Shown here: positions 8,280-56,860 of the stretch, one piece after another | How positions within the stretch are numbered: the stretch's first letter is position 1 | Layout: each line of letters begins with the position of its first letter | From: Candidatus Nealsonbacteria bacterium | GTDB taxonomy: Bacteria > Patescibacteriota > Minisyncoccia > Minisyncoccales > RBG-13-42-11 | Reading direction: 5' to 3' | Length of the DNA stretch: 64,000 bases | Assembly: GCA_019923655.1 (NCBI GenBank) | Contig: JAHXGL010000002.1 | Span: forward strand, 2,933-66,932 | Notes under the pieces: model-generated | What the model was told of the DNA's origin: nothing | What the model saw: the letters and a program-made list of their open reading frames with translations, nothing else | Databases searched by the model: none | Position numbers and translations under genes: made by a program

Positions 8280-8503
8280 AATTTTTCTTTTTCCAGCATT
8301 TCTCCTTCAATGTCTTGGGCTTCTTTTTTAATCTGAAGCCCGCTCTTTCTTAGTTTTTCTTTTCTGTTTTTAGTCTTAACTTTAGTCTTCCAAACCGAGC
8401 GCTCAACACTTTGAGTGCTTGGTTTGGAAACTTTAAGCGACTCGTTTGGTTTAATTTCAATTTTCGTTTCCAAATTCACATTCGTTTCCAAATCCGTTTC
8501 CAA
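8240..8503 (-). other. out-of-frame continuation of ftsZ carrying the conserved FtsZ C-terminal peptide (ETPAFLRRKK)
   Basis: 87-aa ORF overlapping the ftsZ 3' end in a different frame; ends with the FtsA/ZipA-binding consensus (D/E)-x-P-x-F-L-R-R/K. Confidence 0.45.
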
Positions 8504-8790
8504 ACCACGAAGGGGTTTGGAAACGCGGAGTCTTCCAAATCCATCGCGGATTTAGAAACTTTAGTCTTCCGAATCCCTTTGGGAGTGTTCCAAATCCCTT
8601 TGGGATTTGGAAACGAATTCGGAAACGCAGTCTTCTTTTTTTGCTTTATTGTTCCAAATCTGACAAGATTTGGAAAATTTATTTTTTCTCTTTTTCTCTT
8701 TTTCTTTTTTTGGTGCCCATCTTCCCTGTTTTCCAAGTCTTGAAGGGATTTTGAAACGGACTTGGAAACGGACTTGGAAATGGACTTTTC
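8385..8790. repeat. dense block of palindromic hairpin repeats (stem TTCCAAAYC / GRTTTGGAA), at least 8 tandem or nested copies
   Basis: direct sequence inspection; same unit recurs at 9745, 13906, 18851, 30004, 31210, 34801, 51397, 56403, 58645. Confidence 0.85.
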
Positions 8791-13658: not shown

Positions 13659-13961
13659 GGAGTGTGAGATTCGAACCCACATTAGTTGAGCGGGAACAAT
13701 TTGAGTCATATTCAAGGCACGAGGAGTGAAGTGTGCCTTTAGGCACATAAGCGACGAGTAACGAAGAAGATGGCTCAAATTGACCCGCCCCAAGGGGAAG
13801 CTCAAAAATGGATGATTTCTTTGTTGCTCCTCCTCAAGGTGCTTGTCAGCACGATTTCGTTGTCGCGCCTTGAAATCATCTCATTTTTGAGCTTCTCAAT
13901 CTAAAGTTTCCAAATCCCTTTGGGATTTGGAAGACTGATGTGGGTTCGGATCTCACACTCC
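13659..13961. mobile_element. 303-bp element bounded by 24-bp terminal inverted repeats (GGAGTGTGAGATYCGAACCCACAT) that mimic a tRNA T-arm/acceptor; contains one hairpin-repeat copy
   Basis: left TIR 13659-13682 and right TIR 13938-13961 differ at one base (T/C, 23/24 identical when reverse-complemented); element lies exactly between the rpsI stop and the Cas4-like start. Confidence 0.45.
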
Positions 13962-17424: not shown

Positions 17425-17462
17425 AAATTTTCCAAATCTTGTCAGATTTGGAACAATAATCT

Positions 17463-17859: not shown

Positions 17860-19278
17860 TTAGTCAAGTTCAAACCTTAATTTAATTTCAATTTTGTCTA
17901 AATCTTCAGGCGCTCTATCCACCCAGAATGGCCAAAACTTTGGACTGGCTCTAATAATATCTGGCTTTGCTTCCAAAAAATCTTTAGTTTCATACAACGA
18001 CTTTCCCTTAACCGTATTTTCTAAAATCAGAATATTAATGTAGGGATAAATTTTTGCGGCAGCTTCCAAGGCAAGACTCATTTTACCCTGGTCCAAATCA
18101 AAGTCTGTTAAAGAATAATCTATTCTTAAACTCGGCTGATGAATTTGTTTGGTTTCAGGAATTTGGGTCTTAATAAATTCTATGGCAAAATCTTTTAAGT
18201 TTTGTTCTTTGAAAATTAAAGTTTTTGACTCAACTTTAACCTGAAAATTAAAATTTTCCATTTCCATTCCCGGCTTAGCCAAAGAAAAGGTTTCAATAAT
18301 TTCGGTCTGAATTGCCTGGTCAAAGAAAACAAACCCCATTTGCTCTTTGGTTTTTATTTTATTTTCAAAAAAAGCTCGGCTTTCTTTTTTCGCTCTTTCG
18401 CTCAAAATGTTTTTTGCTTTCTCTAAATCTTGTTCCGTCACCTGAATCATTTCTCTGGAAAAACCGCCTGTCATTGATTCAAAAGATTCAGCGTAAAAAT
18501 TAACAAAAAGCGGGGTTCCGACTAATCCCGGAATAGAGAAAGTAGAAGTCCCAATATTATGCCCCTCTCCCGGGACATCGGCAACTACCCTAACATCAAT
18601 ATGTCCGGGTATTATTTTTCCTCTTTCACGACTTTTGCCCGGAATAGTTATTCTGGTCGGCGTTCGGAACACTTTCCCTTCAGCTGATATAAAACGAGTT
18701 CTAGGGATAAAAGATTGAGAAGAAAATGAGTGTTTGTTAAAAACCCTTATTGTTCCTTCAGCTTTTCCCTGTTTTAGAACCTTGGCAGAAGCAGGAAAGA
18801 CATCAGCAACCGTTCTTTTTTCTCTAAAAATTTGGCCGGGAATAACCTTAGTCTTCCAAACCACGAAGGGGTTTGGAAACGAAGTCTTCCAAACCACGAA
18901 GGGATTTGGAAACGAAGTCTTCCAAACCTCTTCAGGTTTGGAAACTTTATTTTCAAAATCAAGTCCTTCTATGCCAATATCAATTTTTAATTCTGTGTTA
19001 AAAGTCTGAATTTCTGTTTTTGGCCAAACTTCTATTACTGCCTTAGGCAGAGTAAAAAAAGCAAGGGCTCCAAGCAAAACTAAAACTGATAATCCTAAAA
19101 TTAGCCATTTTTTATTAAACCCCTGCCTTGGTTTAGCTGTTTTTTTTTCTAAATCTTCTAAGATATTGGCTTCTTTGAAGGGTTTCAAACCCTTTTTGCG
19201 ATCTCGGACACCGGGTTCTAAAATTTGTTCGCGATTTGACGCACAAGGGGGAAAAATGTCAATTACTTTTTTAGTCAT
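17860..19278 (-). CDS. hypothetical membrane-anchored protein (single N-terminal TM) containing three in-frame hairpin-repeat units
   Basis: TM segment WLILGLSVLVLLGALAFF; WKTSFPNPFVV repeated (33-bp period = 11 codons); no family recognised. Confidence 0.5.
   Translation of the reverse strand: MTKKVIDIFPPCASNREQILEPGVRDRKKGLKPFKEANILEDLEKKTAKPRQGFNKKWLILGLSVLVLLGALAFFTLPKAVIEVWPKTEIQTFNTELKIDIGIEGLDFENKVSKPEEVWKTSFPNPFVVWKTSFPNPFVVWKTKVIPGQIFREKRTVADVFPASAKVLKQGKAEGTIRVFNKHSFSSQSFIPRTRFISAEGKVFRTPTRITIPGKSRERGKIIPGHIDVRVVADVPGEGHNIGTSTFSIPGLVGTPLFVNFYAESFESMTGGFSREMIQVTEQDLEKAKNILSERAKKESRAFFENKIKTKEQMGFVFFDQAIQTEIIETFSLAKPGMEMENFNFQVKVESKTLIFKEQNLKDFAIEFIKTQIPETKQIHQPSLRIDYSLTDFDLDQGKMSLALEAAAKIYPYINILILENTVKGKSLYETKDFLEAKPDIIRASPKFWPFWVDRAPEDLDKIEIKLRFELD
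18851..18945. repeat. three tandem hairpin-repeat units (33-bp period) inside a coding sequence
   Basis: gtcttccaaaccacgaaggggtttggaaacgaa x2 plus a variant copy. Confidence 0.85.
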
Positions 19279-27623: not shown

Positions 27624-27686
27624 AAAATTAATAAATTCTAAATTCTAATTTCGTGCTTCGGATTTCCTTTTGCGAAACAAAAGGCA

Positions 27687-34695: not shown

Positions 34696-35376
34696 TTAAC
34701 TTTTCGTGGTTTTCTTATTTTGCTCATTTGCTTGTTTTTCCTGCCCTTGTATTTTGGTTTTCATTTTTTCTTGTTTTTCGTCTCCAAGCTCCTTTACTTC
34801 GTTTCCAAACCCCTTCGTGGTTTGGAAGACTTCCAAAGGAATTGCTGAAGCAACACTCTCTTCTGGATCTTTAAGAATTTTAACATCGTTAGGAATAACT
34901 AAATCTTTAATCAAAATACTATCTTCAAAAGTTTTTATTTTTTCTATATCTACTTTAATTTCATAAGGAAGATTTTGAGGCAGAGCTTTGACTTCTACTT
35001 CATAGATATTCTTAACCAAGGTTCCGCCTAAATTTTTACAAACTAACGCCTCACCCTCAAAAACCAAAGGAACAACAGCAGTAATCTCTTTATCAAGTTT
35101 TGGCTGGTAAAAATCAATATGAATTATTGCTCCGGTAATAGGGTCTTTTTTTGTTTCATAAATTAGAACCAAAAACTTTTGGTCCTGTACTTCAAGAGAA
35201 ATTAAAGAAGACTCTCCGGCTTGTTTATAAACATTTTCAAATTCTTTTAAGTTTACTTCCAAAGCTTGATTTTTGATTTTTGGTCCATACAAAACCGCTG
35301 GCAAAATTTCTTTTTCCCTTAAAATCTGTGTTTTCTTGCCCATATCTTTTCGTGTTTTAGCTGATAAACTAATCAT
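34696..35376 (-). CDS. rplY: 50S ribosomal protein L25 / general stress protein Ctc, with in-frame hairpin-repeat insertion in the C-terminal tail
   Basis: N-terminal L25 motif ILPAVLYG; C-terminal EVFQTTKGFGNEV encoded by the palindrome at 34801-34830. Confidence 0.8.
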   Translation of the reverse strand: MISLSAKTRKDMGKKTQILREKEILPAVLYGPKIKNQALEVNLKEFENVYKQAGESSLISLEVQDQKFLVLIYETKKDPITGAIIHIDFYQPKLDKEITAVVPLVFEGEALVCKNLGGTLVKNIYEVEVKALPQNLPYEIKVDIEKIKTFEDSILIKDLVIPNDVKILKDPEESVASAIPLEVFQTTKGFGNEVKELGDEKQEKMKTKIQGQEKQANEQNKKTTKS

Positions 35377-35397: not shown

Positions 35398-36501
35398 CTA
35401 TTTCTTGAGAATAAATCTTTTTTCTAATGCTTTTAAGGTTTCAACTATTCCGCCATATTCAAGCTCTGAATAAGGCAACATTGCCGGTCCTAAGAATCCC
35501 TGCTCTCTTATTGCAACTGCTTTTTCTGATGCTTTTGTTCTTATATAATCCCAAAATGGCTGGTCAAAAGCGTCTACTGCTTCGGTTAATTTGCCATTTT
35601 TAACGCAAAAACCTGAACAGCTAACTACTGGCGGACCATCAAAAAAAGAAATAGAAGCATTCTCTTTAACAGGCATTAAAGGCCCGTTATGAGAACCCCT
35701 CATAAACCCGGCAACATAAGGAGTTAAAGCGTAAGGAGAAAGAATTTCTCCGGCAGCCGGAAAATTCTTTTGAAGCCGAACCAACATTACCGGATCATCC
35801 TTGCCAACATATTTCCCGGCAATATTATGAAGCCGCGTAGTGCTTACAACTGCTACTTGCTCGCCTGATGCCCGGGACCAAATTGACTCTACCACAAATC
35901 GTTCAGGGTCTCTTAATAATGCGGCAATATCATATGTTTCTTCAGGCGCGTTCAGTTCAATTATCTTATCCGCATCAGTATAAGAAACATCCATAATAAT
36001 AAATTTATAACCTTTTTTCACTTCAGGGACAAGTATTAAGCCGGAATTATGCATTGGGTCGGTAAAAGACAGATATAAAGGCAGATTATAAGCGCCTGGG
36101 TCTGTCTTGTCAGCAGCAAAAAAGAAAAATGGTTCAGCCGGCCTCTCCTCAATTTCCATTTCAGCAACAGCTGGTCCCATTCCCTTAACATTGCCGGAAA
36201 AAGTATCTTTTAATAAGTCCTGACCAGCCCCATAAAGCCCTTGGTCTTTTGCTGTTTGCGTCCCTTTAAGAAGGGCTTCCCAGCATAATTTATGAATTGG
36301 CTCTGCTAAAACACCTTTTTTATGGGTGGACAAGATTGCAACATCATCACCTGTATGGCTGATATAATAATCAATAATCAAGCCCTTTCCTTTGACAGAC
36401 ACATAATTTTTAACTGCCTCAATTAATTTTTTGCTTGGCTTTATATGTCCGGCAATTGAGCCAATATCCGCTTTAATAATACTTAAAGTAATTTTTGCCA
36501 T
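35398..36501 (-). CDS. fbp: bifunctional fructose-1,6-bisphosphate aldolase/phosphatase (class V, archaeal type)
   Basis: N-terminal signature ITLSIIKADIGSIAGH and ~367-aa length typical of the FBP aldolase/phosphatase family. Confidence 0.7.
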   Translation of the reverse strand: MAKITLSIIKADIGSIAGHIKPSKKLIEAVKNYVSVKGKGLIIDYYISHTGDDVAILSTHKKGVLAEPIHKLCWEALLKGTQTAKDQGLYGAGQDLLKDTFSGNVKGMGPAVAEMEIEERPAEPFFFFAADKTDPGAYNLPLYLSFTDPMHNSGLILVPEVKKGYKFIIMDVSYTDADKIIELNAPEETYDIAALLRDPERFVVESIWSRASGEQVAVVSTTRLHNIAGKYVGKDDPVMLVRLQKNFPAAGEILSPYALTPYVAGFMRGSHNGPLMPVKENASISFFDGPPVVSCSGFCVKNGKLTEAVDAFDQPFWDYIRTKASEKAVAIREQGFLGPAMLPYSELEYGGIVETLKALEKRFILKK

Positions 36502-36520
36502 AATATTTATTGTTCATTAT

Positions 36521-36625
36521 AATTTGTAAGAAATCCTAGCGTTATTTACACTTTGCTCGGCAACGAAATCTTCAAACTACCGGCTGTTCTTTGTCCCAGC
36601 GGACAAAGCCAGCCTGCGTTCTCGG
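36521..36625. repeat. degenerate partial copy of the 233-bp MITE (core ACCGGCTGTT-hairpin-AGCCTGCGTTCTCGG) in the ppsA-fbp spacer
   Basis: alignable to MITE positions ~60-140; the hairpin stem differs (ctttgtcc/ggacaaag versus aaaatc/gatttt) but pairing is retained. Confidence 0.6.
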
Positions 36626-36640
36626 ATTTTTATTTTCTTT

Positions 36641-36680
36641 TTCCCTTTTTTTTAAAGAAAAAAGGAAAAAGAAAAACCAT
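36641..36680. terminator. AT-rich inverted-repeat hairpin (ctttttccttttttt/aaaaaaggaaaaag) downstream of the ppsA stop
   Basis: near-perfect palindrome followed by T-runs on the transcribed strand. Confidence 0.45.
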
Positions 36681-36807
36681 GCTAAAAATCCTCCGAAAGC
36701 TATTTTGAAGATTTGTTGCCTCGCTTAAAATTAAAACCTGTAAACAACACTGCTGATTCTTACATATAATTATAACAAACTAAATAATCCTGTCAAATCC
36801 GTTGTGC

Positions 36808-39263: not shown

Positions 39264-40493
39264 TTATACAATATATTTCTGAAGAATGTTTGGAATTTTA
39301 ATACTTCCATCTTTTTGCTGATAGTTTTCAATAATAGCGATTAAAGACCTGGGAATGGCAAAAACGGTTCCGTTTAAGGTGTGAACAAATTCTAATTTTT
39401 TGGTTTTAGAATCGCGATAGCGAATGCTTAAACGTCTTGCCTGAAAATCAGTGCAATTTGAAGTAGAGTGGGTCTCTCGATAAATGCCTTGTCCGGGCAT
39501 CCAGGTTTCAATATCATAAGTGCTGGCAGAGGGCCTTCCAATATCTCCGGTACAAAGATGAACCACTCTATATGGAAGCTCTAAGTCATTCATTAATTTT
39601 TTCTCTATGTCCAATAAATGCTTGTGCTCTTTTTTTGAATCTTCTGGTTTGCAAAAAACAAACATTTCTATTTTATCAAACTGATGAACCCTTAAAATGC
39701 CCTTGGTGTCTTTGCCAGAAGCGCCTGCTTCCCGCCGAAAACAAGTGGAGAAGCCAACATATCTTTTAGGTAATTCTTTCTCTTTGAAAATTTCATCAGC
39801 ATGCAGAACTCCTATTGACTGCTCGGAAGTGCCAACTAAATATAAATCATCTTGCGGTAAATAATATGCCTCTTCTTTATCTGCTTGTTCCAAATAACCC
39901 ATTCCTTTAGCTGCGTCCGCTTTCAGCATTACCGGTGGAATTATTGGTATAAATCCCTGTTTTGACAAAGTATCAAAGGCAAAGTTTATTAAAGCGAATT
40001 CTATTAGGACAGCATCATTTTTCAAATAACCAAACCGGGTACCAGAAACTTTAGCCGCTCTTTTAACATCTATTAAATCCAATTTAGTCGCGATTTCCAA
40101 ATAATCTTTTGGCTTGAAATCAAATTTTGGTTTTACGCCTATCTCCTCTAAAATTAGATTGTCTTTTTCATCTTTTCCAGCCGGCACTTCATCCAAAGGC
40201 AAATTAGGAATCTGAAGCATTAAAGCGTTAAAATCTTTTTTAGTTTTTTCTAATTTTGGTTCTATTTTTTTAATCTCTTTTTTTATTTTTTTTGCCTCCT
40301 GAATCTCGTCTTTTCCTAATTTGCGTTGTTTTGCTTTCAAACTTTCTACTCTTTGCAGATATTCTTTTTTCTTTTTATCAAAATCCAAAAGCTTGTCAAT
40401 ATCAACTTCAACCTGCTTTTTTTTACAACCCTGTTTCACCTTATCCGGATAATTTCTTATGAATTTTATATCAAGCATAGAACAAGGCAACAA
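39264..40493 (-). CDS. serS: serine--tRNA ligase
   Basis: class II motifs FRREAGASGKDTKGILRVHQF, GSGLAVGR-type; likely start at the internal Met (MLDIKFIRNYP). Confidence 0.9.
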   Translation of the reverse strand: MLPCSMLDIKFIRNYPDKVKQGCKKKQVEVDIDKLLDFDKKKKEYLQRVESLKAKQRKLGKDEIQEAKKIKKEIKKIEPKLEKTKKDFNALMLQIPNLPLDEVPAGKDEKDNLILEEIGVKPKFDFKPKDYLEIATKLDLIDVKRAAKVSGTRFGYLKNDAVLIEFALINFAFDTLSKQGFIPIIPPVMLKADAAKGMGYLEQADKEEAYYLPQDDLYLVGTSEQSIGVLHADEIFKEKELPKRYVGFSTCFRREAGASGKDTKGILRVHQFDKIEMFVFCKPEDSKKEHKHLLDIEKKLMNDLELPYRVVHLCTGDIGRPSASTYDIETWMPGQGIYRETHSTSNCTDFQARRLSIRYRDSKTKKLEFVHTLNGTVFAIPRSLIAIIENYQQKDGSIKIPNILQKYIV

Positions 40494-40513
40494 GGAGACT
40501 TCGTTGCCGAGCG

Positions 40514-46167: not shown

Positions 46168-46352
46168 ATCTATAATCTTTATGATTTTTGTTTTGACGCG
46201 GGATATAAAGCTTTTAACGATTATTAATTGCTAGCCAAAAAATTGCTGATGATTTATTAGTACTGCTCGGCTTAACCCATTACTGAGCTTACACCTACAG
46301 CCTATCAAGGTCGTCATCTTCGACCAATCTAAGAGTCCTAATCTTGGAGCCT

Positions 46353-46383
<31 letters not shown>

Positions 46384-46572
46384 AGTTCCCGACTTAGCTA
46401 CCCAGCAATGCTCCTGGCGGAACAGCTGGTACACCAGAGGTCGATTCAGCCTGATCCTCTCGTACAAAGGCCAACCCTCCTCAAGACTCAAACGCCTGCG
46501 GTAGATAGAGACCAACCTGTCTCACGACGGTTTGAACCCAGCTCACGTACCACTTTAATTGGCGAACAGCCA

Positions 46573-46615
<43 letters not shown>

Positions 46616-46622
46616 CACTAAA

Positions 46623-47518
46623 TTTCTATTATTACTAATAGCGTAGACTATACCTTTATCTAGAACATCCATTCTAGACACCAACGTTTTATAGTACTTA
46701 ACGCACTATCTTCATCCCGCGTAATGCGGAAATCTAGTCGTTACGGGGTCGCGAAAACCTATTTTATACATCATCGAAGGGATGATGTATGGACGTATGA
46801 CATTGGTTAATTTTTTCGTTTCTTCTTGGTTACAATACATCCTGTATCCTTTATCGCGATCGCGATAATATCGGATCTGAATGTTGAAAATGTTCTCGAA
46901 ACATTTTTGCAGAAAAATTATTTCTGGCAAAGAAAAAGAATAAGTGCTTATGTCAATTTTGCCTTTGGAATATGAACCGTCGTCCATAATCCAGACGGCT
47001 AAAGCGAAAGGGGTTAATTCTTTTCCGATTTCAAATGGAATAATCTTCCTTCCATTTTTATAACCTTCTCTCTTGTAGAATTTTTTGTAGATTTCAGTAA
47101 ACAACGGGTGTCTTATCGTTCTGAACCACCATGATTTTTCATATTTATTGCCTTTTTCATCATATCTGTAACTCATTTTAGGCTCAGTAAATACAAACGG
47201 TTTTAGTATTTGATATTTCCAATCAACATACTTTTTTTGAACTAACCCGTGATCTACTTTGAAATTGACATTTTGAGCTCCTTTGCCCAAACGCATCGTT
47301 CCATCGCCAAGAAGAGATCCAATGATTAATGATCTCTGTTTCGAATTTAACCTCAGAGATTTTTTAATCAGAATCCACTTTTTGTGCCAATGTTTATTTT
47401 CGCAACTTCCCACGGTGTTGACCATATATTTAGCTAATTATAGCAAATTTACTGGGTCTTTATAAATATATGGCTTTCTCCGTTATGAGTTGGTTTATCC
47501 TCGACATTCGGCTACTTT
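46623..47518 (-). mobile_element. group I intron (inferred) in 23S domain V, between CACCTCGAT and GTCGGCTC (E. coli ~2500 region), carrying a LAGLIDADG ORF
   Basis: exon sequence is contiguous with E. coli 23S when 46623-47518 is removed. Confidence 0.65.
46712..47425 (-). CDS. LAGLIDADG homing endonuclease (double-motif)
   Basis: motifs LIIGSLLGDGTM and LAVWIMDDGS. Confidence 0.85.
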   Translation of the reverse strand: MVNTVGSCENKHWHKKWILIKKSLRLNSKQRSLIIGSLLGDGTMRLGKGAQNVNFKVDHGLVQKKYVDWKYQILKPFVFTEPKMSYRYDEKGNKYEKSWWFRTIRHPLFTEIYKKFYKREGYKNGRKIIPFEIGKELTPFALAVWIMDDGSYSKGKIDISTYSFSLPEIIFLQKCFENIFNIQIRYYRDRDKGYRMYCNQEETKKLTNVIRPYIIPSMMYKIGFRDPVTTRFPHYAG

Positions 47519-47749
47519 ATCGAGGTGCCGAACAGGGCCGTTAATGTGAACTTGCAGGCCCTACCAGCCTGTTATCCCCGGGGTAGCTTTTATCTGATGA
47601 TCCTCCCCATTTCTATAAATAAGGGTCGGTTCACTAAGTTCTGGTTTCCCATCTGCGCGGCATATCCGCCTTGCAGTTAAGCCGGCTTATCCCTTTACAG
47701 GACCGCTCCGATTTCCATCCGGAGCTAGCCGACCTTATAAACGCCTCCA

Positions 47750-48406
47750 CTACTCTTTAGGCAATTCTGTTAACCTTAAAACTCTTGGAATTTTATATTT
47801 CATCGAAGAAATTATGTGTGGTTTTATCAATGCGATAAACTTTTCTCCAGATTTTCCTCCTAAATAAATTTGTTTTCCATTTTTCTCTTTTCTTGTTGTA
47901 CTGCTAATTCCGAATTTAACCTTCAATACCTCTTGAAGTCTTTTCACATCATCCTCTCTAAATCCTTGGGTGTTTAAAAATAAACCCTTGTGTTTTCTCG
48001 ATTTAATTGATCCGTCATCCATATACCAAATCGCTAATCCTAAAGGAGTAATATCCTTTTCTAAGTCATTCGGTATAATTTTCTTTCTTTTTCTGTAAAA
48101 TTTTTCTTGGAATTCTCCTAACAATCTATGACCATAAGTAATGAATCCATAATTCAGGTAAGTTTTATTCCAAACTTTCTTTCTCTTTGATTTTGGTTTA
48201 CTCCTTATCCAATTCCGAAATTCCTCATAAATCCAGTCAACATATTCTTTCTGTTTGTAGCTGTGTTCTACTTTTAATCTTCCTAGTATCGGTGTATACA
48301 ATCTTTCTAAATGACCATCTCCTAAAATCAAACCAATTAAGATTTCTTTTTGTCTTTGACTTAGAGAGAGTTTACTTTTATATTCTTCGATTTCTTTACT
48401 TCGCAT
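47750..48406 (-). CDS. LAGLIDADG homing endonuclease (double-motif)
   Basis: motifs LIGLILGDGHL and LAIWYMDDGS. Confidence 0.85.
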   Translation of the reverse strand: MRSKEIEEYKSKLSLSQRQKEILIGLILGDGHLERLYTPILGRLKVEHSYKQKEYVDWIYEEFRNWIRSKPKSKRKKVWNKTYLNYGFITYGHRLLGEFQEKFYRKRKKIIPNDLEKDITPLGLAIWYMDDGSIKSRKHKGLFLNTQGFREDDVKRLQEVLKVKFGISSTTRKEKNGKQIYLGGKSGEKFIALIKPHIISSMKYKIPRVLRLTELPKE

Positions 48407-48690
48407 AATTTCAGAGTTTAAGTTTCGGATTAGTTAGCGGGCACTAAAACTAACCTTGCCGAATCTTTAGGTCGCCCTAAAGTTCAGACTGTATCACTAC
48501 CCCTTGAAATAATTCTATATCTCAAAGGGACTCGACATACAGTCGTTGAGGGCATCCGCCTTTGGCGGGTTTCCCTGCTGATTGTCCGCACCAAAGAATT
48601 ATTACTTAATTTTATCAAAATTAAGTATCTTTGGATACTCGGATGTTCCAGCATATTAGTCGAGTTTGCTCTAAAGATTACTCTTTAGAG
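47751..48690 (-). mobile_element. second group I intron (inferred) in 23S, upstream of the CCTAAAGAGTA block, carrying a LAGLIDADG ORF
   Basis: exon blocks ...GTAGTTTAAGTGGGGC and GCCTAAAGAGTAGTGGAGG are separated by ~940 bp; boundaries approximate. Confidence 0.55.
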
Positions 48691-51396
48691 GCCCCATAAA
48701 TTAAGGCAAGTGCCCCACTTAAACTACCTACCAGACACTGTTTTTCGCCAATTAAGGCAAAGTTAGAACAAAGACCTTGAAAGACGGGTGTTTCATTGGC
48801 GTCCTGCTCTCAAAGAACAGAACTCCCCGCTACACTACACATTCAAAGCCAAAATTCAATATCTGGCTATAGTAAAGCTCCCGGGGTCTTTTCGTCTAGC
48901 CGCAGGTAACCGGCATCTTTACCGGTATTGCATTTTCACCGAGCTCCTCGTTGAGACAGTTCCCAAGTCGTTAAGCCTTTCATGCGGGCCGGAACTTACC
49001 CGGCAAGGGATTACGCTACTTTAAGACGGTTATAGTTACCGCCGACGTTCACTGGCGCTTCATTCAGTCAGCGCCAAACACATAAACTATGCGCTTGACA
49101 CCGCCAAATTTAACGTTCCAGCACTGGTCAGGCCTCAGCCCCTATACATCCTCTTACGAGTTAAGCAGGGACCTGTGTTTTTGATAAACAGTCGCCTGGG
49201 ATACTTTTGTTGCAGCCCAGCCTTGTGCAAAGCACAAGGTCAGGCAGTCCTTATTGCGAACTTACGGACACTTTTTTGCCGAGTTCCTTAACGAGGTTTC
49301 ACTCGTTCACCTTGGCACATTTACGCCTACCCACCTGTGTCGGTTTACGGTACGGACTAAACGCATAACTAACTCCTAAGAAGTTTTTCTGGGAAGCTTG
49401 CTCATTTGAGTTCATCCCACCGTAGCAGGACTTCCTGTTAGCCCTTGAAAAATCTCAAGCTAACAACAGAAATCCAATAATCTGCTCAAATTACTAAACT
49501 CCGTCACTCCTTAGAATTATGCGCTCAGGGGCCGGAATATTAACCGGCTGTCCATCATCCAGGCCATTCGGCCAAAGACTAAGGACCGCCTAACCCTTGG
49601 TTGATTGTCATTGCCAAGGAAACCTTAGGTTTTCGGTGTCCCGGGCTCTCACCGGGATTGCGGTTACTCATGCCAACATTCTCACTCCTTAGCGCTCCAC
49701 CAAACCTCACGGTTTGACTTCGCAGCACTAAAGACGCTCCCCTACCACCCATGAAATAAAAATATCTCACGGGTCCTTATCTTCGGTACTAAGCTTAGTC
49801 CCGGTAATCTTCGGCGCGAAATTCCTTAATTAGTAAGCTATTACGCACTTTTTAAAGGATAGCTGCTTCTAAGCTAACCTCCTAACTATCTTTGGAAATT
49901 CACTTCCTTAAAAACACTTAGCTCTTCGCAACCCTTTTAATAAAAGAGTTGGAACCTGCCTTTCAGCAGTAGTTTAGGGACCTTAGATAAAGATCTGGGC
50001 TGTTTCCCTTTTGACTATGGAGCTTAGCCCCCACAGTCTAACTCCCCGCCAAAATTTTTTCGCCATTCGGAGTTTGATTGGAAAGACTAGGCAAAGCCCA
50101 CGTAATTCCATTCAGTGCTCTACCTGCGAAAATTTAGGCGAAGGCTAGCCCTAAAGCTATTTCGGGGAGAACCAGCTATTACCAAGCTCGATTAGCTTTT
50201 CACTTCTTACCACAGCTCATCCCAGAGTATTGCACGGCTCACGGGTTCGGGCCTCCTCTCGACTTTCGTCGAGATTCACCCTGGCCATGGCAAGCTCGCT
50301 TGGCTTCGGGTTCTCTATTTCCAGTCTTCCTGATAAATCAGGGGTCGCGCTATTAACACTTGCTTTCGCTTTGCCTTCGCCCCAGAAGGGCTTAGACAAA
50401 CTGAAAATAAAGACTCGTTGGCTCGTTCTGCAAAAAGCACGTCATCACCCCGCCGAAGCGGAGCTCTGACTCTTTGTAGGCGTGATGGTTTCAGGTTCTA
50501 TTTCACCGCCCTTCCGGGCTACTTTTCACCTTTCCCTCACGGTACTGGTTCACTATCGGTGAGATTAAGTATTTAGCCTTGGCTGATAGTTCAGCCTGCT
50601 TCCTTCAAGGTTTTCATTCCTTGAAGTACTCAAGTATAACAGTTAGGAGCATGAAATCGTTTTCGCTTACAGGACTATTACCTTCTTTGGTCAGGCTTTC
50701 CATCCTTGTTTAGCTAACGAAATTTCATTTTGATAGACTCCTTTTGAAGCAAAAGCTCCAAAACACCATTAACTTACAACCCCCAGCCACACCTCGCTAC
50801 GCTCGGTATTCACTTAAACGTAAAGCGTAAAACGTAAAATGCAAAACAACAGTTCAAAATTCAAAACAAAATGTTTTAAGTTTTAGGTTGTTATTTTACG
50901 CTTTTCGCTTTTAGTTTTTCATTTAAGTTCGTACCAAGCGCAAAGAGGTATGGCTAGGTTTGGGCTATTCCCTTTTCGCTCGCCGCTACTAAGGGAATAT
51001 CCTTGTGCGGAGCACAAGGCTTGTTTTCTTTTCCTCCGCTTACTGAGATGTTTCACTTCAGCGGGTTCGCCGCCGCGCAGAGCGCGGCTTGCCGTGGTTT
51101 ACACGGCAGGGTTTCCCCATTCGGAAATCCCCGGATCAAAGGTTGGTAGCCACCTCCCCGAGGCTTATCGCAAGCACCCTACGTCCTTCATCGCCTTAAT
51201 CTCCCAAGGCATCCTCCATCCGCCCTTAAAATGCAATTTGGCATACCAATTTTGTAAAACAAAATTGATAAGTTTGGCTAGCAATTAATAATCGCTATGT
51301 TTACCCTGTTAAATAATTTGCTTCGCAAATTAAAAATCAAAGATTTTTATTTAATAGGGTGAATCCTGTTAAATAATTTTGCCTTCGGCAAAATTG

Positions 51397-51520
51397 CTCG
51401 GTTTGGAATACTTCGTTTCCAAACCAAGCATTCAAAGTGTTGAGTGCTCGGTTTGGAATACTTCGTTTCCAAACCAAGCATTCAAAGTGTTGAGTGCTCG
51501 GTTTGGAATACTGCGGAACA
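51397..51520. repeat. about 2.3 tandem copies of a 57-bp unit in the 23S leader, each containing a long-loop variant of the hairpin repeat
   Basis: gctcggtttggaatacttcgtttccaaaccaagcattcaaagtgttgagt repeated. Confidence 0.8.
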
Positions 51521-51770
51521 GCATTTAACAGGGTGAATTTTTAATGTTCTTTCCTTTCTCTGCTAATTATCAATTAATTGGTAATTAGCAGAAAAAAGAA
51601 AAATCGCTTTTAGAAAGCGATTTTTCAGAACATAAACAAAAATTCTGGAATTTAACCGCTTTCCTTCTTTAGAATGGTTTTATTTTTTCTCATGCTTAAT
51701 TTAGAAACGCGGGATTCAAACCAACATATCAGTCCAAACTCGCATTCTTAATATTAACAGAATAAAAATC

Positions 51771-52723: not shown

Positions 52724-53650
52724 TTATACTTTTAGATAACTCCTGGTTGCCAAAAAACTGGAAATCATTCCCAGTCCTATGCCAATGGATATTTGAATCA
52801 AAAAAATAAGCCAAATATTTTTAATAAAGAAACTAAATATATTCAAGCCAGGAAGTAAAAGCTCTAATCTTGGACTAATTAGCCAAGAACCCAAAGCAAA
52901 AAACGAGAGGCAGATTAAAGCGGCAAAAACACCAATCATCATTCCCTGAACTAAAAAGGGTCCCCGAATAAACCAGTTTGTCGCTCCAACCAATCTCTGA
53001 ATTTTTATTTCTTCCCGGGAACTGTAAATAGCTAATCTAATAGTGTTAAAAACAATCAAAACTGCCATAATCGCCAAAATTGCTACTAAACCAATCCCCA
53101 CTCTATTTAAATTGGCAGTAAGGGCAAAAATCCTTTCAATGGCCGGCTTTGTTTCCTTATAATCAACTTTTTCAATAAATTCTTTTATAGGTTCGGTTTC
53201 TAAAAATTTTGCTATTGCCTGATAATAAACAGGTCCGGCTGCCCTGATATTTAAAGAGGATAAAAAAGGATTAAACCCCAAAACATTCAAAGACTCCATT
53301 AAAACCGGGTCGTCTTGGTGTCTCTTGATAAAATCCTTAAGGGCTTGCTCTTGAGAAACATATTCAACATCTTCTACGCCGTCCATATTGGCAATTTTTT
53401 CTTTAATCTCCCGAATATCTTGTTCCAATGTTTCAAATCTAAAATGAGCCGAGATATCAACTCTTGCCTGAATGCTTAAAATCAGGAACTGGCTAATATG
53501 ATTAAAGAAAAAAAGCGAAGTAATAACCGAAAGCATCATTACCATAATAAAAATATTAACTATTGCCAAGCCCTTGTTCCGACCAAAACTTCTCCCGCTC
53601 GCTTTTATAATTCGTTTAAATGAAATAAACATAGAAGCCATAATTCTCAT
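52724..53650 (-). CDS. ftsX: cell division ABC transporter permease FtsX
   Basis: 4-TM FtsX topology with large periplasmic loop, follows ftsE. Confidence 0.85.
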   Translation of the reverse strand: MRIMASMFISFKRIIKASGRSFGRNKGLAIVNIFIMVMMLSVITSLFFFNHISQFLILSIQARVDISAHFRFETLEQDIREIKEKIANMDGVEDVEYVSQEQALKDFIKRHQDDPVLMESLNVLGFNPFLSSLNIRAAGPVYYQAIAKFLETEPIKEFIEKVDYKETKPAIERIFALTANLNRVGIGLVAILAIMAVLIVFNTIRLAIYSSREEIKIQRLVGATNWFIRGPFLVQGMMIGVFAALICLSFFALGSWLISPRLELLLPGLNIFSFFIKNIWLIFLIQISIGIGLGMISSFLATRSYLKV

Positions 53651-54327
53651 AGAATAAATCTTCCGTTTTGTTCATCCCGAATCACTTTTCCATCCTGAAG
53701 GGTAATTACCCTTTTTCCCAATGAATTAATTATATTTTTATTATGGGTAACTAAAATTACCGTAGTGCCCAAAGTGTTAATTTTTAATAAAAGCCGTGTA
53801 ATGTCCAAAGCATGATAAGGATCAAGGTTGCCAAGCGGTTCGTCGGCCAAAATAACCTCGGGCCGATGAATCAATGCCCGGGCAATAGCCACTCTCTGCC
53901 TTTCGCCTCCGGAAAGTTCAGCCGGGAAACTATTAGCTCGTTCAGTAAGGCCGACTATTTCCAGAACTCCTGCTACGTCTCTGGTAATCTCAAAATCTGA
54001 AACTCCAATCACTTCCATTATATAAGCAATGTTTTCATATGTTGTTTTAGACGGAATCAATTTATAATCTTGAAAAACAGCTCCAATTTTTCGACGCAAC
54101 TCCGACACTTTTGTTGATTTGAAACGGCAAATATCCTGATCGTTTAAAAAAATTCGGCCTTGGTTTGGTTTTTCTTCAGCCAAAAGAAGTTTTAATAAAG
54201 TGGTCTTGCCTGCTCCCGACCTTCCGATTATAGAAACAAATTCTTTTGACCCAACCTCAAAAGAAACATTGTCTACCGCTTTTATGTCAGGAGGATAAAT
54301 TTTAGAAACATTCTGAAATTTTATCAT
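53647..54327 (-). CDS. ftsE: cell division ATP-binding protein FtsE
   Basis: Walker A GRSGAGKTT, ABC signature LSGGERQRVAIARAL, Walker B ILADEP. Confidence 0.9.
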   Translation of the reverse strand: MIKFQNVSKIYPPDIKAVDNVSFEVGSKEFVSIIGRSGAGKTTLLKLLLAEEKPNQGRIFLNDQDICRFKSTKVSELRRKIGAVFQDYKLIPSKTTYENIAYIMEVIGVSDFEITRDVAGVLEIVGLTERANSFPAELSGGERQRVAIARALIHRPEVILADEPLGNLDPYHALDITRLLLKINTLGTTVILVTHNKNIINSLGKRVITLQDGKVIRDEQNGRFIL

Positions 54328-54337
54328 TTATATTATT

Positions 54338-54570
54338 GGGTAAAGTCTGAAAAACGGACCTATTTGTTCGTAATTTAGCTTAAAGCATCAGAAGCTCAGC
54401 AATCAAGTTTCAAGTCACCGGCTGTTAAAATCCCAGCGAGATTTTACAGCCTGCGTTCTCGGCTTGTTGTCCCTCACTTTGTTCGGGAACCATGCCAACA
54501 AGCCTGCGAAAGCTGCCTTGAAACTTATTGCCTCACTTCTGAAATCGGTCCGGGAAATCGAACTTTACCC
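54338..54570. mobile_element. 233-bp MITE-like element with terminal inverted repeats GGGTAAAGT...ACTTTACCC, flanked by 7-bp direct repeat TATTATT
   Basis: near-identical to 56154-56387; inserted precisely between the prfB stop (54573) and the ftsE start (54327). Confidence 0.8.
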
Positions 54571-54572
54571 TA

Positions 54573-55670
54573 TTATTTGTTGGCTTGGCGAATTTCAGCC
54601 TCAATAAATTCATCTAAGTTTCCGTCTAATACTTTTTCAACATCTGATTTCTCAATCCCTGTTCTTAAATCTTTGACTAATTTATAGGGATGTAAAACAT
54701 AAGACCTTGTTTGATTTCCCCAGCCAACAGAAACATTTTTCCCCTTAAATTGCTTTATTTCTTTTTCAGCTTTCTCTTTTTCTTTCTGAAAAAGACGGCT
54801 AATCAGAACCTTCATCGCCTTATTTTTGTTTAACCCCTGAAGTCTTTCTTTTTGACAGGAAACCTTGACCCCGGAAGGTAAATGAGTTATTCTAACCGCT
54901 GTTTCCCGTTTGTTGACATACTGACCGCCCGGACCAGAAGCGCGATAATAATCAATTTTTAAGTCCTCGGGCTTAATGTTAATTTCCGCCTGTTTAATTT
55001 CAGAAATCTCCGGCAGGACTTCAACTAAAGCAAAAGAAGTATGACGAAGAGACCTTGAAGAAAAAGGAGAAATACGCACTAAACGATGGACTCCGGTTTC
55101 TTTTTTCAAAAAACCAAAAGCATATTTCCCTTTAATTTCTAATATGGCTGTTTTTGTTCCGATTCTTCCTTCTGGTCCGCCGGCCTCGCCAAAAGATTGG
55201 TCCAAAATTGCGGTTTTAAGTCCCTTAAAATGACAATATCTCTCATACATTCGCAAAAGCATTGTCGCCCAATCTTGGGCGTCTATACCTCCGGCTCCAG
55301 CATAAATTGACAAAATAGCATTGTCTTTATCGCGCTCAAAGGAAAACCAAACTTGAAATTCTTTGTTTTTAACTCGGCTTTCTAAAATCTGAAGTTTTTC
55401 TTCTATTTGTTTTTCTTTTTGGTCTTCTTTTTCTCTGCTTAGCCCTTCTAAATCATTTAATTCTTTTTTAAGTTCAATAAAATCTCTTATTTCTTTTTTC
55501 AAATCTGCCAGCTCCTGACTAATTTTGATTGCTTGCTCTTGCTTGCGCCAAAAATCCTGTCTCTGAATCTGTTTTTCAATTTCTTCAATTCTTTTTTCTT
55601 TTCTCTTTATGTCAAAGACAGTCCTCAAGATTGAGGATTTTCTTATTGAGGTCTTTAAGGTTTTGAACAA
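54573..55670 (-). CDS. prfB: peptide chain release factor 2 (single frame, no programmed frameshift)
   Basis: SPF tripeptide motif and GGQ motif (SGPGGQYVN). Confidence 0.85.
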   Translation of the reverse strand: MFKTLKTSIRKSSILRTVFDIKRKEKRIEEIEKQIQRQDFWRKQEQAIKISQELADLKKEIRDFIELKKELNDLEGLSREKEDQKEKQIEEKLQILESRVKNKEFQVWFSFERDKDNAILSIYAGAGGIDAQDWATMLLRMYERYCHFKGLKTAILDQSFGEAGGPEGRIGTKTAILEIKGKYAFGFLKKETGVHRLVRISPFSSRSLRHTSFALVEVLPEISEIKQAEINIKPEDLKIDYYRASGPGGQYVNKRETAVRITHLPSGVKVSCQKERLQGLNKNKAMKVLISRLFQKEKEKAEKEIKQFKGKNVSVGWGNQTRSYVLHPYKLVKDLRTGIEKSDVEKVLDGNLDEFIEAEIRQANK

Positions 55671-55685
55671 ATTTGGTCATCATTA

Positions 55686-56147
55686 TCAACGAGCAAAATG
55701 AGCAAAAGCTCTGTTCGCTTCAGCCATCCGACGAATATCTTCTTTCTTTTTGACAGCCGCTCCGCTGTTATTCGCGGCATTAATCAATTCTTGAGATAAT
55801 TTTTCCTTCATTGACTTTCCTTTTCTCGCTTTTGCCGAAAGGATTATCCAGCGAGCCGCTAAAGCCATCCTTCTTTTATCTTTTACCTCTCTTGGCACCT
55901 GATATGTTGCCCCGCCCACTCTTTTAGGCTTTACCTCTAAAACAGGCGCGGCATTTTCAAGCGCTCTTTCAAAAACCCCCAGAGGATCTTTCTTGGTTTC
56001 TTCTTTAATAATATCAAAAGCATTATAAACTATTTTCCTAGCTAGGGCTTTTTTTCCTCGCCGCATTATGTAATTAATAAATTTAGCCACTGCAATATTA
56101 TTATAAACAGGGTCTGGCAAAGTTTGATATTTTGTCTTTTTTTTCAT
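55686..56147 (-). CDS. rpsG: 30S ribosomal protein S7
   Basis: S7 core, position after rpsL. Confidence 0.9.
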
Positions 56148-56153
56148 ATATTT

Positions 56154-56387
56154 GGGTAAAGTCTGAAAAACGGACCTATTTGTTCGTAATTTAGCTTAAA
56201 GCATCAGAAGCTCAGCAATCAAGTTTCAAGTCACCGGCTGTTAAAATCCCAGCGAGATTTTACAGCCTGCGTTCTCGGCTTGTTGTCCCTCACTTTGTTC
56301 GGGAACCATGCCAACAAGCCTGCGAAAGCTGCCTTGAAACCTATTGCCTCGCTTCTGAAATCGGTCCGGGAAATCGAACTTTACCCT
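56154..56387. mobile_element. 234-bp MITE-like element (second copy), flanked by 7-bp direct repeat TATATTT
   Basis: about 98% identical to the 54338-54570 copy; lies between rpsL and rpsG, ending 6 nt from the rpsG start codon. Confidence 0.8.
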
Positions 56388-56402
56388 ATATTTCCAAATG
56401 AA

Positions 56403-56430
56403 GTTTCCAAATCCGTAGGATTTGGAAGAC
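56403..56430. repeat. hairpin-repeat copy in the rpsL-rpsG spacer
   Basis: gtttccaaatccgtaggatttggaagac. Confidence 0.8.
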
Positions 56431-56437
56431 TAAAATT

Positions 56438-56860
56438 TCAAGATGCTGTTTTCTTCTCTCGTTTAGTTCCATACTTGCTTCTTTCCTGTTTTCTCCCTTC
56501 AACACCGCCAGCATCCAACACCCCCCTTACAATATGATACCTTACTCCCGGCAGATCTTTCACTCTTCCTCCCCTGATTAAAACCACAGAGTGCTCCTGA
56601 AGATTATGGCCTTCGCCGGGAATATAAGCCGTCACTTCCATTCCATTAGTCAAACGAAGTCGGGCTACTTTTCTAATGGCGGAATTCGGTTTCTTGGGAG
56701 TAACAGTAAAAACTTTCAGACAAACTCCTTTTTTGAACGAAGACGGATAATTTTTTGGCCTGTTTTTCTTAACATTAAAACCAAAAGCCAAAGCTGGCGT
56801 TTTTGTTTTCTTTTTTGTCCTTTTTCTCTTTTTTTTAATTAATTGTTGAATTGTCGGCAT
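56438..56860 (-). CDS. rpsL: 30S ribosomal protein S12 (with basic N-terminal insertion)
   Basis: [16 protein letters not shown]...[17 protein letters not shown]. Confidence 0.9.

Follow-up and report, generated by a model that had tools for sequence, protein, structure and literature searches.

Two near-identical 233-bp repeats interrupt the rpsL-rpsG-prfB-ftsE-ftsX gene row of a Candidatus Nealsonbacteria contig (JAHXGL010000002.1), of which we analysed positions 2,933 to 66,932, a stretch of 64,000 nucleotides referred to below as the window. They raise the question of whether a mobile element has recently landed at these gene junctions or whether the operon carries an ancestral structured leader, and of which part of the repeat is conserved. 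We found that the two repeats (elements A and B) and a diverged third one (element C) are composite, with arms that bear inverted repeats enclosing a module of ~145 nt, and that the insertions of B and C are recent, since they are polymorphic among near-identical strains. We put the probability at about 0.8 that A, B and C are non-autonomous mobile elements of the miniature inverted-repeat transposable element (MITE) kind, whose module comes from a Patescibacteria-wide family in which one strand, termed S (the minus strand of the window), has been selected to fold.

Elements B and C are recent insertions

Read on the plus strand, A and B both start with GGGTAAAGTCTG and finish with CGAACTTTACCC, and they have terminal inverted repeats (GGGTAAAGT/ACTTTACCC) together with subterminal CGGACC/GGTCCG. 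The first-pass annotation of this stretch, which had been made from the sequence alone, described the pair as about 98% identical; the pair is real, but the two copies differ at two positions only (231/233 identical, 99.1%). Its coordinates for A were correct, whereas the right end of B (56387) and the adjoining flank (56388-94) were one base too high (Table 1). The perfect 7-bp flanks it reported, TATTATT around A and TATATTT around B, were confirmed, as was the gene setting: in the order rpsL, B, rpsG, prfB, A, ftsE, ftsX, all on the minus strand, A occupies the entire prfB-ftsE gap and B stops 6 nt short of the rpsG ATG. What it had missed were the third element (36525-36764), a remnant at 40482-40513, and the interior, rather than the termini, as the conserved part. 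The elements (233 and 240 bp) are non-coding and crossed by short spurious open reading frames (ORFs) only, with a G+C content of 46% in the element versus 36% in the window. The predicted fold of A is a long rod, with -97 kcal/mol (z = -7.5) when read on the minus strand and -84 kcal/mol when read on the plus strand; that of C reaches -107 kcal/mol (z = -10.7).

For comparison, we retrieved assemblies through identical proteins encoded there (S12, FBPase and FtsE); an exact-protein look-up with the S7 of the window returned no record. The S12 of the window is also encoded on two contigs that are 99.5-100% identical to the window, L178 (BBPF01000019.1) and L179 (BBPG01000263.1). In both, the rpsL-rpsG spacer is unoccupied and reads TTTGGAAATATATGAAAAAAAAG, with one AAATATA. 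The alignment of the window to these contigs leaves out exactly 233 bp, and its two parts overlap by 7 bp in the empty allele, so that copy B is an insertion with a 7-bp target-site duplication. Likewise, four independent assemblies (L184, L186, L187 and L188) encode an identical FBPase, lack C and contain a single AATTATA. The duplications of B and C, both of 7 bp, were therefore checked directly against empty sites, and the single 7-mer in the empty alleles shows that they are true duplications rather than a chance identity of AT-rich flanks. The earlier annotation had named the lack of empty sites as the observation that would speak against its proposal of recent, MITE-like transposition into AT-rich gene junctions; empty alleles exist for both B and C, and the proposal stands. 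Its further suggestion, that the operon mRNA has co-opted the element as a leader or processing structure, is rejected for the window copies because B is missing from the 99.5-100% identical strains.

In the case of A, the duplication rests on the flanks and on contig breaks at the boundary. The element is also present at prfB-ftsE in L179 and L191, with its right end seen upstream of ftsE, and the duplication boundary (54331..54337) is precisely where contigs L192 and L193 stop. L178 has a cluster of ~27-nt hairpin repeats (TCTTCCAAATCCGTAGGATTTGGAAAC) in place of A, and its RF2 C-terminus reads NSLPNP before the stop instead of NK. The prfB-ftsE junction is thus a polymorphic hot spot.

Dispersed copies were found at more loci than the two recognised at first. 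A-type elements occupy three loci (two in the window and one in L164, where the A-type 3' arm recurs at 100% identity beside another gene), and C-type elements occur in the window and in L159, the latter in unrelated flanks. When the 233-bp element was compared with other loci, arm matches outside the window were limited to L164 and L179 for the A type and to L159, L181 and L184 for the C type. Target sites, read on the folding strand, were AATAATA, AAATATA, AATTATA and TTCTATA, plus TTTTAAC/ATTTAAC. L159 and L164 (QLTW01000397.1 and QLTW01000246.1) are short contigs binned in a metagenome-assembled genome (MAG) of Ca. Psychracetigena formicireducens (phylum Lithacetigenota), and their arms are 100% identical to the C- and A-type elements of the window; they are probably mis-binned pieces of the window's organism.

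Element C has terminal inverted repeats TGTAAGAATC...GATTTCTTACA (TGTAAGAA), unlike the termini of A and B, and its arms also differ, the core module being common to all three. Between the A and C types only a short GTAA(A)G motif near the tips is held in common; the arm-bearing elements end in GGGTAAAG or TGTAAG. The insertion of C hit the -10/+1 region of a consensus promoter, so that C is now the 5' leader of the predicted fbp transcript, whereas in the empty allele the same promoter stands directly before fbp. Alleles of the L184 type have the fbp promoter region twice, with an 80-nt insert between the two that contains a terminator-like hairpin. The product of window positions 35398-36501 is an archaeal-type bifunctional fructose-1,6-bisphosphate aldolase/phosphatase (PF01950), and its gene adjoins that of PEP synthase. 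The remnant, which corresponds to stem P1 of the module only, lies antisense to the genes and directly adjoins the stop codon of the 40514-41977 gene; it has the same sequence in L184. Blastn, nhmmer, a motif search and an unfiltered covariance-model scan revealed no window copies beyond A, B, C and this remnant.

The interior is a strongly covarying three-way-junction module

Within the ~145 nt common to A, B and C, the stems show compensatory changes and the loops are identical. Stem P1 contains tandem G.A pairs (GCGAGG/CCGAGC). In P2, the internal loops are invariant (AGCUUUCGnAGG facing CCGAGAACGCAGG, together with a GCAUGGU bulge), while the hairpin is variable and often ends in c(GAA)g triloops. 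P3 is a hairpin with a CGCUGGG loop. We derived two search patterns from the conserved loops. The first gave 42 metagenome loci, all 42 of which were confirmed by nhmmer. The second gave 30 genome loci, in which the true matches were labelled Patescibacteria, Nealsonbacteria or Saccharibacteria, plus the two short contigs in the Psychracetigena MAG. In viral contigs, a 16-mer from the core produced 105 matches, which we regard as chance because nhmmer confirmed none of them. When the full 233-bp element was compared with the pattern-retrieved loci, the core alone matched and the arms did not. In total the module was located at 57 places, in the window and in the fetched metagenome and Patescibacteria genome loci; the complete Nealsonbacteria genome CP179888.1 (639,534 bp) has three of them.

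A covariance model of 147 positions and 44 pairs gave 55 matches in 382 kb. In the resulting 55-row alignment, 96.7% of cells were paired and 39 of the 44 pairs showed compensatory changes on both sides. None of 500 shuffles reached the level of the module, and slid controls were 23-47% paired. This support for a conserved fold is equally compatible with folded single-stranded DNA (ssDNA). Searches of Rfam 15 gave no match in the elements at the gathering threshold over the whole window, and chance-level matches only at E up to 10 over the region; our literature search found no paper on such an element in Patescibacteria or the candidate phyla radiation. The module is hence an undescribed, strongly covarying, high-copy repeat family across Patescibacteria.

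Several loci show family members in close contact. One arm of A (GATTTCCCGGACC) is similar to the strand that forms P1 in another subfamily (GATTTTnGGGACC). Modules of different subfamilies lie back to back or as inverted pairs (L133, 11468-11800; L139, 7703-8007; L147, 536-672 and 4624-4769), and half-modules (AAGCGAGG..GATTTTnGGGACCATC) abut full ones. These paired and half modules point to nesting or recombination among family members.

One strand of the module is selected to fold

Among the stem cells that are not Watson-Crick pairs on S, G.U was found 43 times, G.A 40 times and A.C 17 times; on the complement, only 17 and 3 cells read G.U and G.A. Folding with RNA parameters also favoured S over its complement in 51/51 sequences (by 9.3 kcal/mol on average), and folding with DNA parameters did so in 50/51. 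This asymmetry indicates selection on a folded single strand of the S sequence. The two differences between A and B fall in the same direction, as they preserve pairing on the minus strand only (U.G to C-G, and A-U to G.U). Since G.U and G.A are about equally frequent and wobble pairs are rare (about 2%), the selected form could be ssDNA just as well as RNA.

We found no consistent transcription of the folding strand. Outside the window, about 39 of 43 loci have S antisense to the genes, and among 30 loci sigma-70-like promoters preceded the module in one case upstream of S and in none on the other strand, versus 2% in controls. A, B and C are all sense in the window, whereas the copies in L164 and L159 are antisense; the young polymorphic copies thus divide into three sense and two antisense, compared with about 90% antisense among the established ones. 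This contrast fits random insertion followed by the loss of sense-oriented copies.

Armless modules occupy tight junctions of housekeeping operons and probably turn over

Outside the window the module is usually armless and fills very tight junctions in housekeeping operons, with the upstream stop codon 2-9 nt from one end and the next start codon 1-50 nt from the other. Occupied junctions include dnaK-dnaJ, groES-groEL, S8-L6, infA-S13, S21-yqeY-like, rnc-S16, pgk, glyA-folD and a sensor kinase-response regulator pair; in CP179888.1, three copies within 20.5 kb occupy L3-L4, L14-L24 and galT-tpiA. Direct repeats around the armless copies did not exceed a shuffled-pair null (best repeat 5.2 nt, versus 5.6 nt in the null).

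The S8-L6 junction was found in four different states among relatives with 83-100% identical S8: L135 has a subfamily-1 module, L194 a module of a different subfamily (56.6 bits), L195 a third interior enclosed by identical termini (GCTCGGCA...TGCCTCGCT), and L196 is empty, which indicates insertion right after the stop codon with no visible duplication. The S8-L6 spacer of the window itself (27624-27686) had no covariance-model match. Modules at the same junction in different genomes were 75.3% similar, compared with 75.0% for modules at different junctions. Same-junction copies are therefore no more alike than others, which argues for turnover or exchange and against vertical descent, and inheritance in place with compensation at each site is not supported.

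Some members lie within genes. The gene mnmA holds an in-frame module in L106/L124 and in L114, at different sites and in different orientations, and both are read through; covariance-model matches fall on the inserts, which span aa 165-222 in L106 and aa 289-342 in L114. Some Nealsonbacteria S8 proteins (169 or 153 aa versus 129) and L6 proteins contain in-frame low-complexity inserts, such as PSRAIAKGKEE repeats (P0096 / L199 10001-10510; P0111; L6 of L136), and small repeats may land within essential genes too. In addition, ATTCGTA/TACGAAT heptamer repeats (e.g. TTATTCGTATATTCGTAAAAATTCGTAATTCGTAGGG) stand between the module and the next gene, right before start codons, in L113, L145, L131, L112, L135, L127, L195 and L196, and they persist at the empty S8-L6 junction of L196. 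In these genomes they may act as a promoter or leader signal.

Relation to known repeat classes

Bacterial MITEs are short elements without coding capacity that end in terminal inverted repeats; young copies are bordered by direct repeats, the targets are AT-rich and intergenic, and the transcripts form stable stem-loops (PMC10969869). The window elements, which fall under the ~600-bp size limit of the class, have every structural feature of a MITE, verified empty sites included, as well as multiple copies and insertion polymorphism, and for B and C the MITE reading is proven. They depart from bacterial MITEs in that conservation and covariation lie in the interior instead of the ends, and in the 7-bp duplication; moreover, unlike in a classical MITE, the A and C types have the module in common but not the terminal repeats, except for GTAA(A)G.

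Insertion of IS630/Tc1 elements gives a TA duplication and that of IS200/IS605 elements gives none, and so neither of the origins proposed in the first-pass annotation fits a duplication of 7 bp. A MITE derived from IS630/Tc1-mariner, of the Correia and RUP type, is ruled out by the length of the duplication, and a palindromic element derived from IS200/IS605 by the terminal inverted repeats and 7-bp duplications. Like REP/BIME repeats, which are mobilised by RAYT, and IS200/IS605-derived palindromes, the module has a folded single strand, an orientation bias and intergenic sites within operons, but those are 20-40-nt or subterminal hairpins without terminal inverted repeats or target duplications, and IS200/IS605 derivatives insert 3' of a fixed tetra- or pentanucleotide.

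Correia elements of Neisseria and ERIC sequences of enterobacteria are repeats of 100-200 bp that are co-transcribed and can alter mRNA processing. They resemble the present family in their location at gene junctions, long hairpins and subfamilies with internal insertions or deletions. They are not known to share its multi-branch conserved core with covariation as strong: Correia elements have a TA duplication and long conserved terminal inverted repeats, and ERIC is a simple imperfect palindrome. Rickettsia palindromic elements (RPEs) are likewise structured repeats of ~150 bp in the reduced genome of a host-dependent bacterium, with intergenic and in-frame genic insertion, the latter being true of the module family (mnmA in L106 and L114) and not of the window copies. 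RPEs belong to another phylum, and their mobilising enzyme is not known. They are defined by a conserved encoded peptide, whereas here the conservation lies in a three-way-junction fold with invariant loops and the copies are mostly intergenic; the separation from RPEs is one of description. Group I/II introns, hammerhead, HDV and twister ribozymes and 6S RNA were dropped on size, the absence of an Rfam match or the 7-bp duplication, as were, on the same grounds, retron ncRNA, TnpB/IscB guide RNA, IS110 bridge RNA and integron attC sites.

Annotation of the window

Gene labels in Table 1 are from Pfam. Among the 34 window ORFs scanned in Pfam no transposase was found, and all were housekeeping except two LAGLIDADG intron ORFs. 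The 23S rRNA gene (46250-51225) is interrupted, with Rfam matches in three pieces, and LAGLIDADG homing-endonuclease ORFs lie at 46712-47425 and 47750-48406, from which we conclude that it contains rRNA introns; such introns are common in Patescibacteria. The minus strand holds 68 of the 72 window ORFs of at least 90 aa. A second repeat family consists of REP-like hairpins of ~24-27 nt (TTCCAAAYC-loop-GRTTTGGAA) at 8384-8675, 13908-13932, 17430-17453, 18920-18943, 30008-31, 34798-34843, 51395-51544 and 56405-56427. These are partly in tandem (50-nt units at 51395-51544), one lies just past rpsL, and the L178 cluster at the site of element A belongs to them.

Table 1. Elements, duplications and genes discussed in the text (window coordinates; CM, covariance model)
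Feature	Position	Strand	Remarks
Element A	54338..54570	minus	233 bp, prfB stop to ftsE start
Arms of A, read on minus (S) strand			32 nt 5' of core, 56 nt 3' of core
Core of A	54392..54540	minus	CM R1, 154.3 bits
Duplication of A, left	54331..54337		TATTATT on +, AATAATA on gene strand
Duplication of A, right	54571..54577		TATTATT; overlaps prfB stop codon (TAA) at 54573-54575
Element B	56154..56386	minus	233 bp, rpsL-rpsG spacer
Core of B	56208..56356	minus	CM R1, 153.8 bits
Duplication of B, first	56147..56153		TATATTT on +; takes in A of rpsG ATG
Duplication of B, second	56387..56393		TATATTT on +
Element C	36525..36764	minus	240 bp, between ppsA and fbp; nhmmer with element A, E = 2.3e-9
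Core of C	36553..36728	minus	CM R1, 127.1 bits; longer P2 hairpin
Duplication of C, first	36518..36524		TATAATT on +, AATTATA on gene strand
Duplication of C, second	36765..36771		overlaps -10 box of fbp promoter
fbp promoter	36769..36796	minus	consensus sigma-70 TTGACA-16-TGnTATAAT (extended -10), 12/12; ends 5 nt before C
P1-only core remnant	40482..40513	plus	AAGGCAACAAG-GAGA-CTTCGTTGCCGAGCG; covariance model 18.3 bits
rpsL	56438-56860	minus	
rpsG	55686-56147	minus	
prfB	54573-55670	minus	
ftsE	53647-54327	minus	
ftsX	52724-53650	minus	

Discussion

We favour the reading of A, B and C as non-autonomous, MITE-kind elements that carry a folding module. They would be moved by an enzyme that makes 7-bp staggered cuts and is supplied in trans; it is not encoded in the 34 scanned ORFs. 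Both the A/B and the C type would then be a 7-bp-duplicating shell around a module with a separate history. This composite reading is based on the different tips of A and C, the armless modules without a duplication, and the likeness of the A arm to the P1 of another subfamily. The conserved fold would serve propagation or persistence as a single-stranded intermediate and not the operon. Tolerance of the insertions probably has three sources: the whole element closes as a rod and leaves its flanks adjacent, the duplication restores an A/U-rich stretch before the start codon, and the organism seldom uses Shine-Dalgarno sites, a motif of this kind, even a loose one, being present in 13 of 65 window genes.

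Several observations weigh against this reading. In the scan of the 34 window ORFs, neither a cognate transposase nor an autonomous element with matching ends turned up. One transposase that recognises the ends of both types is not demonstrated, because A and C tips have only GTAA(A)G in common. Armless copies are without a detectable duplication, a result with which the empty junction of L196 agrees, and the 7-bp mechanism may thus belong to the arms alone, with the module spreading otherwise. Finally, the undecayed pairing and strict orientation bias of resident copies could reflect a host function over selfish spread.

Such a function would be that of an intercistronic element that stabilises, processes or insulates cistrons or keeps stop and start codons close, of which the window elements would be mobilised versions. 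MITE transcripts are known targets of RNase III and RNase E, which provides a precedent (PMC10969869), and the location in housekeeping operons (right behind a stop codon, with the next start 1-50 nt away), the prevailing orientation (about 39/43 loci), the pairing of 96.7% and the density (three copies within 20.5 kb in a complete genome of 640 kb) are all in favour. However, the strand selected to fold (G.U, tandem G.A and GAA triloops; 51/51 sequences) is usually antisense to the mRNA, the module is missing at the same junction in a close relative (L196) and in the S8-L6 spacer of the window, B and C are polymorphic among near-identical strains, mnmA has taken up in-frame copies, and same-junction copies do not cluster. 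On balance, we regard a host-useful element as unlikely. A spread of the module through a single-stranded intermediate (cDNA or ssDNA of S, from operon transcripts or replication forks), with the arms as a separate MITE shell that captured it, appears less probable again. It would explain why one strand is selected to fold and yet lacks a promoter (1/30 loci vs 2% in controls), and it agrees with the counts of G.T (43), G.A (40) and A.C (17) and the c(GAA)g triloops, with armless copies that lack a duplication, with different interiors between common termini at one site, and with the nesting suggested by the A arm. On the other hand, the family has no established link to a reverse transcriptase or an HUH enzyme, for which no dedicated search was made, the mechanism is conjectural throughout, and the orientation of resident copies places S on the presumed leading-strand template and not on the fork-exposed strand.

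The remaining two explanations are far less credible. An independent small-RNA gene with its own promoter would account for the covarying fold, and C does begin 5 nt past a perfect promoter, but this is the pre-existing fbp promoter, also found in the empty allele; together with the lack of promoter enrichment before either strand in 30 loci, and with the many copies that leave less than 10 nt to neighbouring start and stop codons, this makes such a gene very improbable. Least probable of all is a structured leader or cis-regulatory RNA that the str/ftsEX operon has had from its ancestors, with 7-bp flanks identical by chance. The strong predicted structure and the location just upstream of start codons would suit it, but it is refuted for B and C by the single-7-mer empty sites in 99.5-100% identical strains, and the same element occurs beside unrelated genes and has no Rfam match.

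Beyond the MITE-kind reading of A, B and C, we tentatively raise a wider proposal, to which we give a low probability: the module might represent a Patescibacteria element of a new kind, mobile or domesticated, that depends on its structure. Its selected form would be folded ssDNA or cDNA antisense to operons, and it would insert without duplication after stop codons, exchange its interior through conserved termini and be able to ride in 7-bp MITE shells.

Patescibacteria genomes are among the smallest and most gene-dense in bacteria, and despite this streamlining the repeat is found between essential genes for ribosomal proteins, chaperones and glycolysis. The window provides direct evidence of ongoing movement, as a site occupied in one strain can be empty in an otherwise identical one; an insertion has come to lie 6 nt from where ribosomal protein S7 starts, and another parts a consensus promoter from its gene. 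The covariation of the module rivals that of well-established RNA families, and the module is absent from the RNA database searched. The family offers a lead on how mobile elements persist in streamlined genomes, on movement without a local transposase, and on the use that a host may make of the fold.

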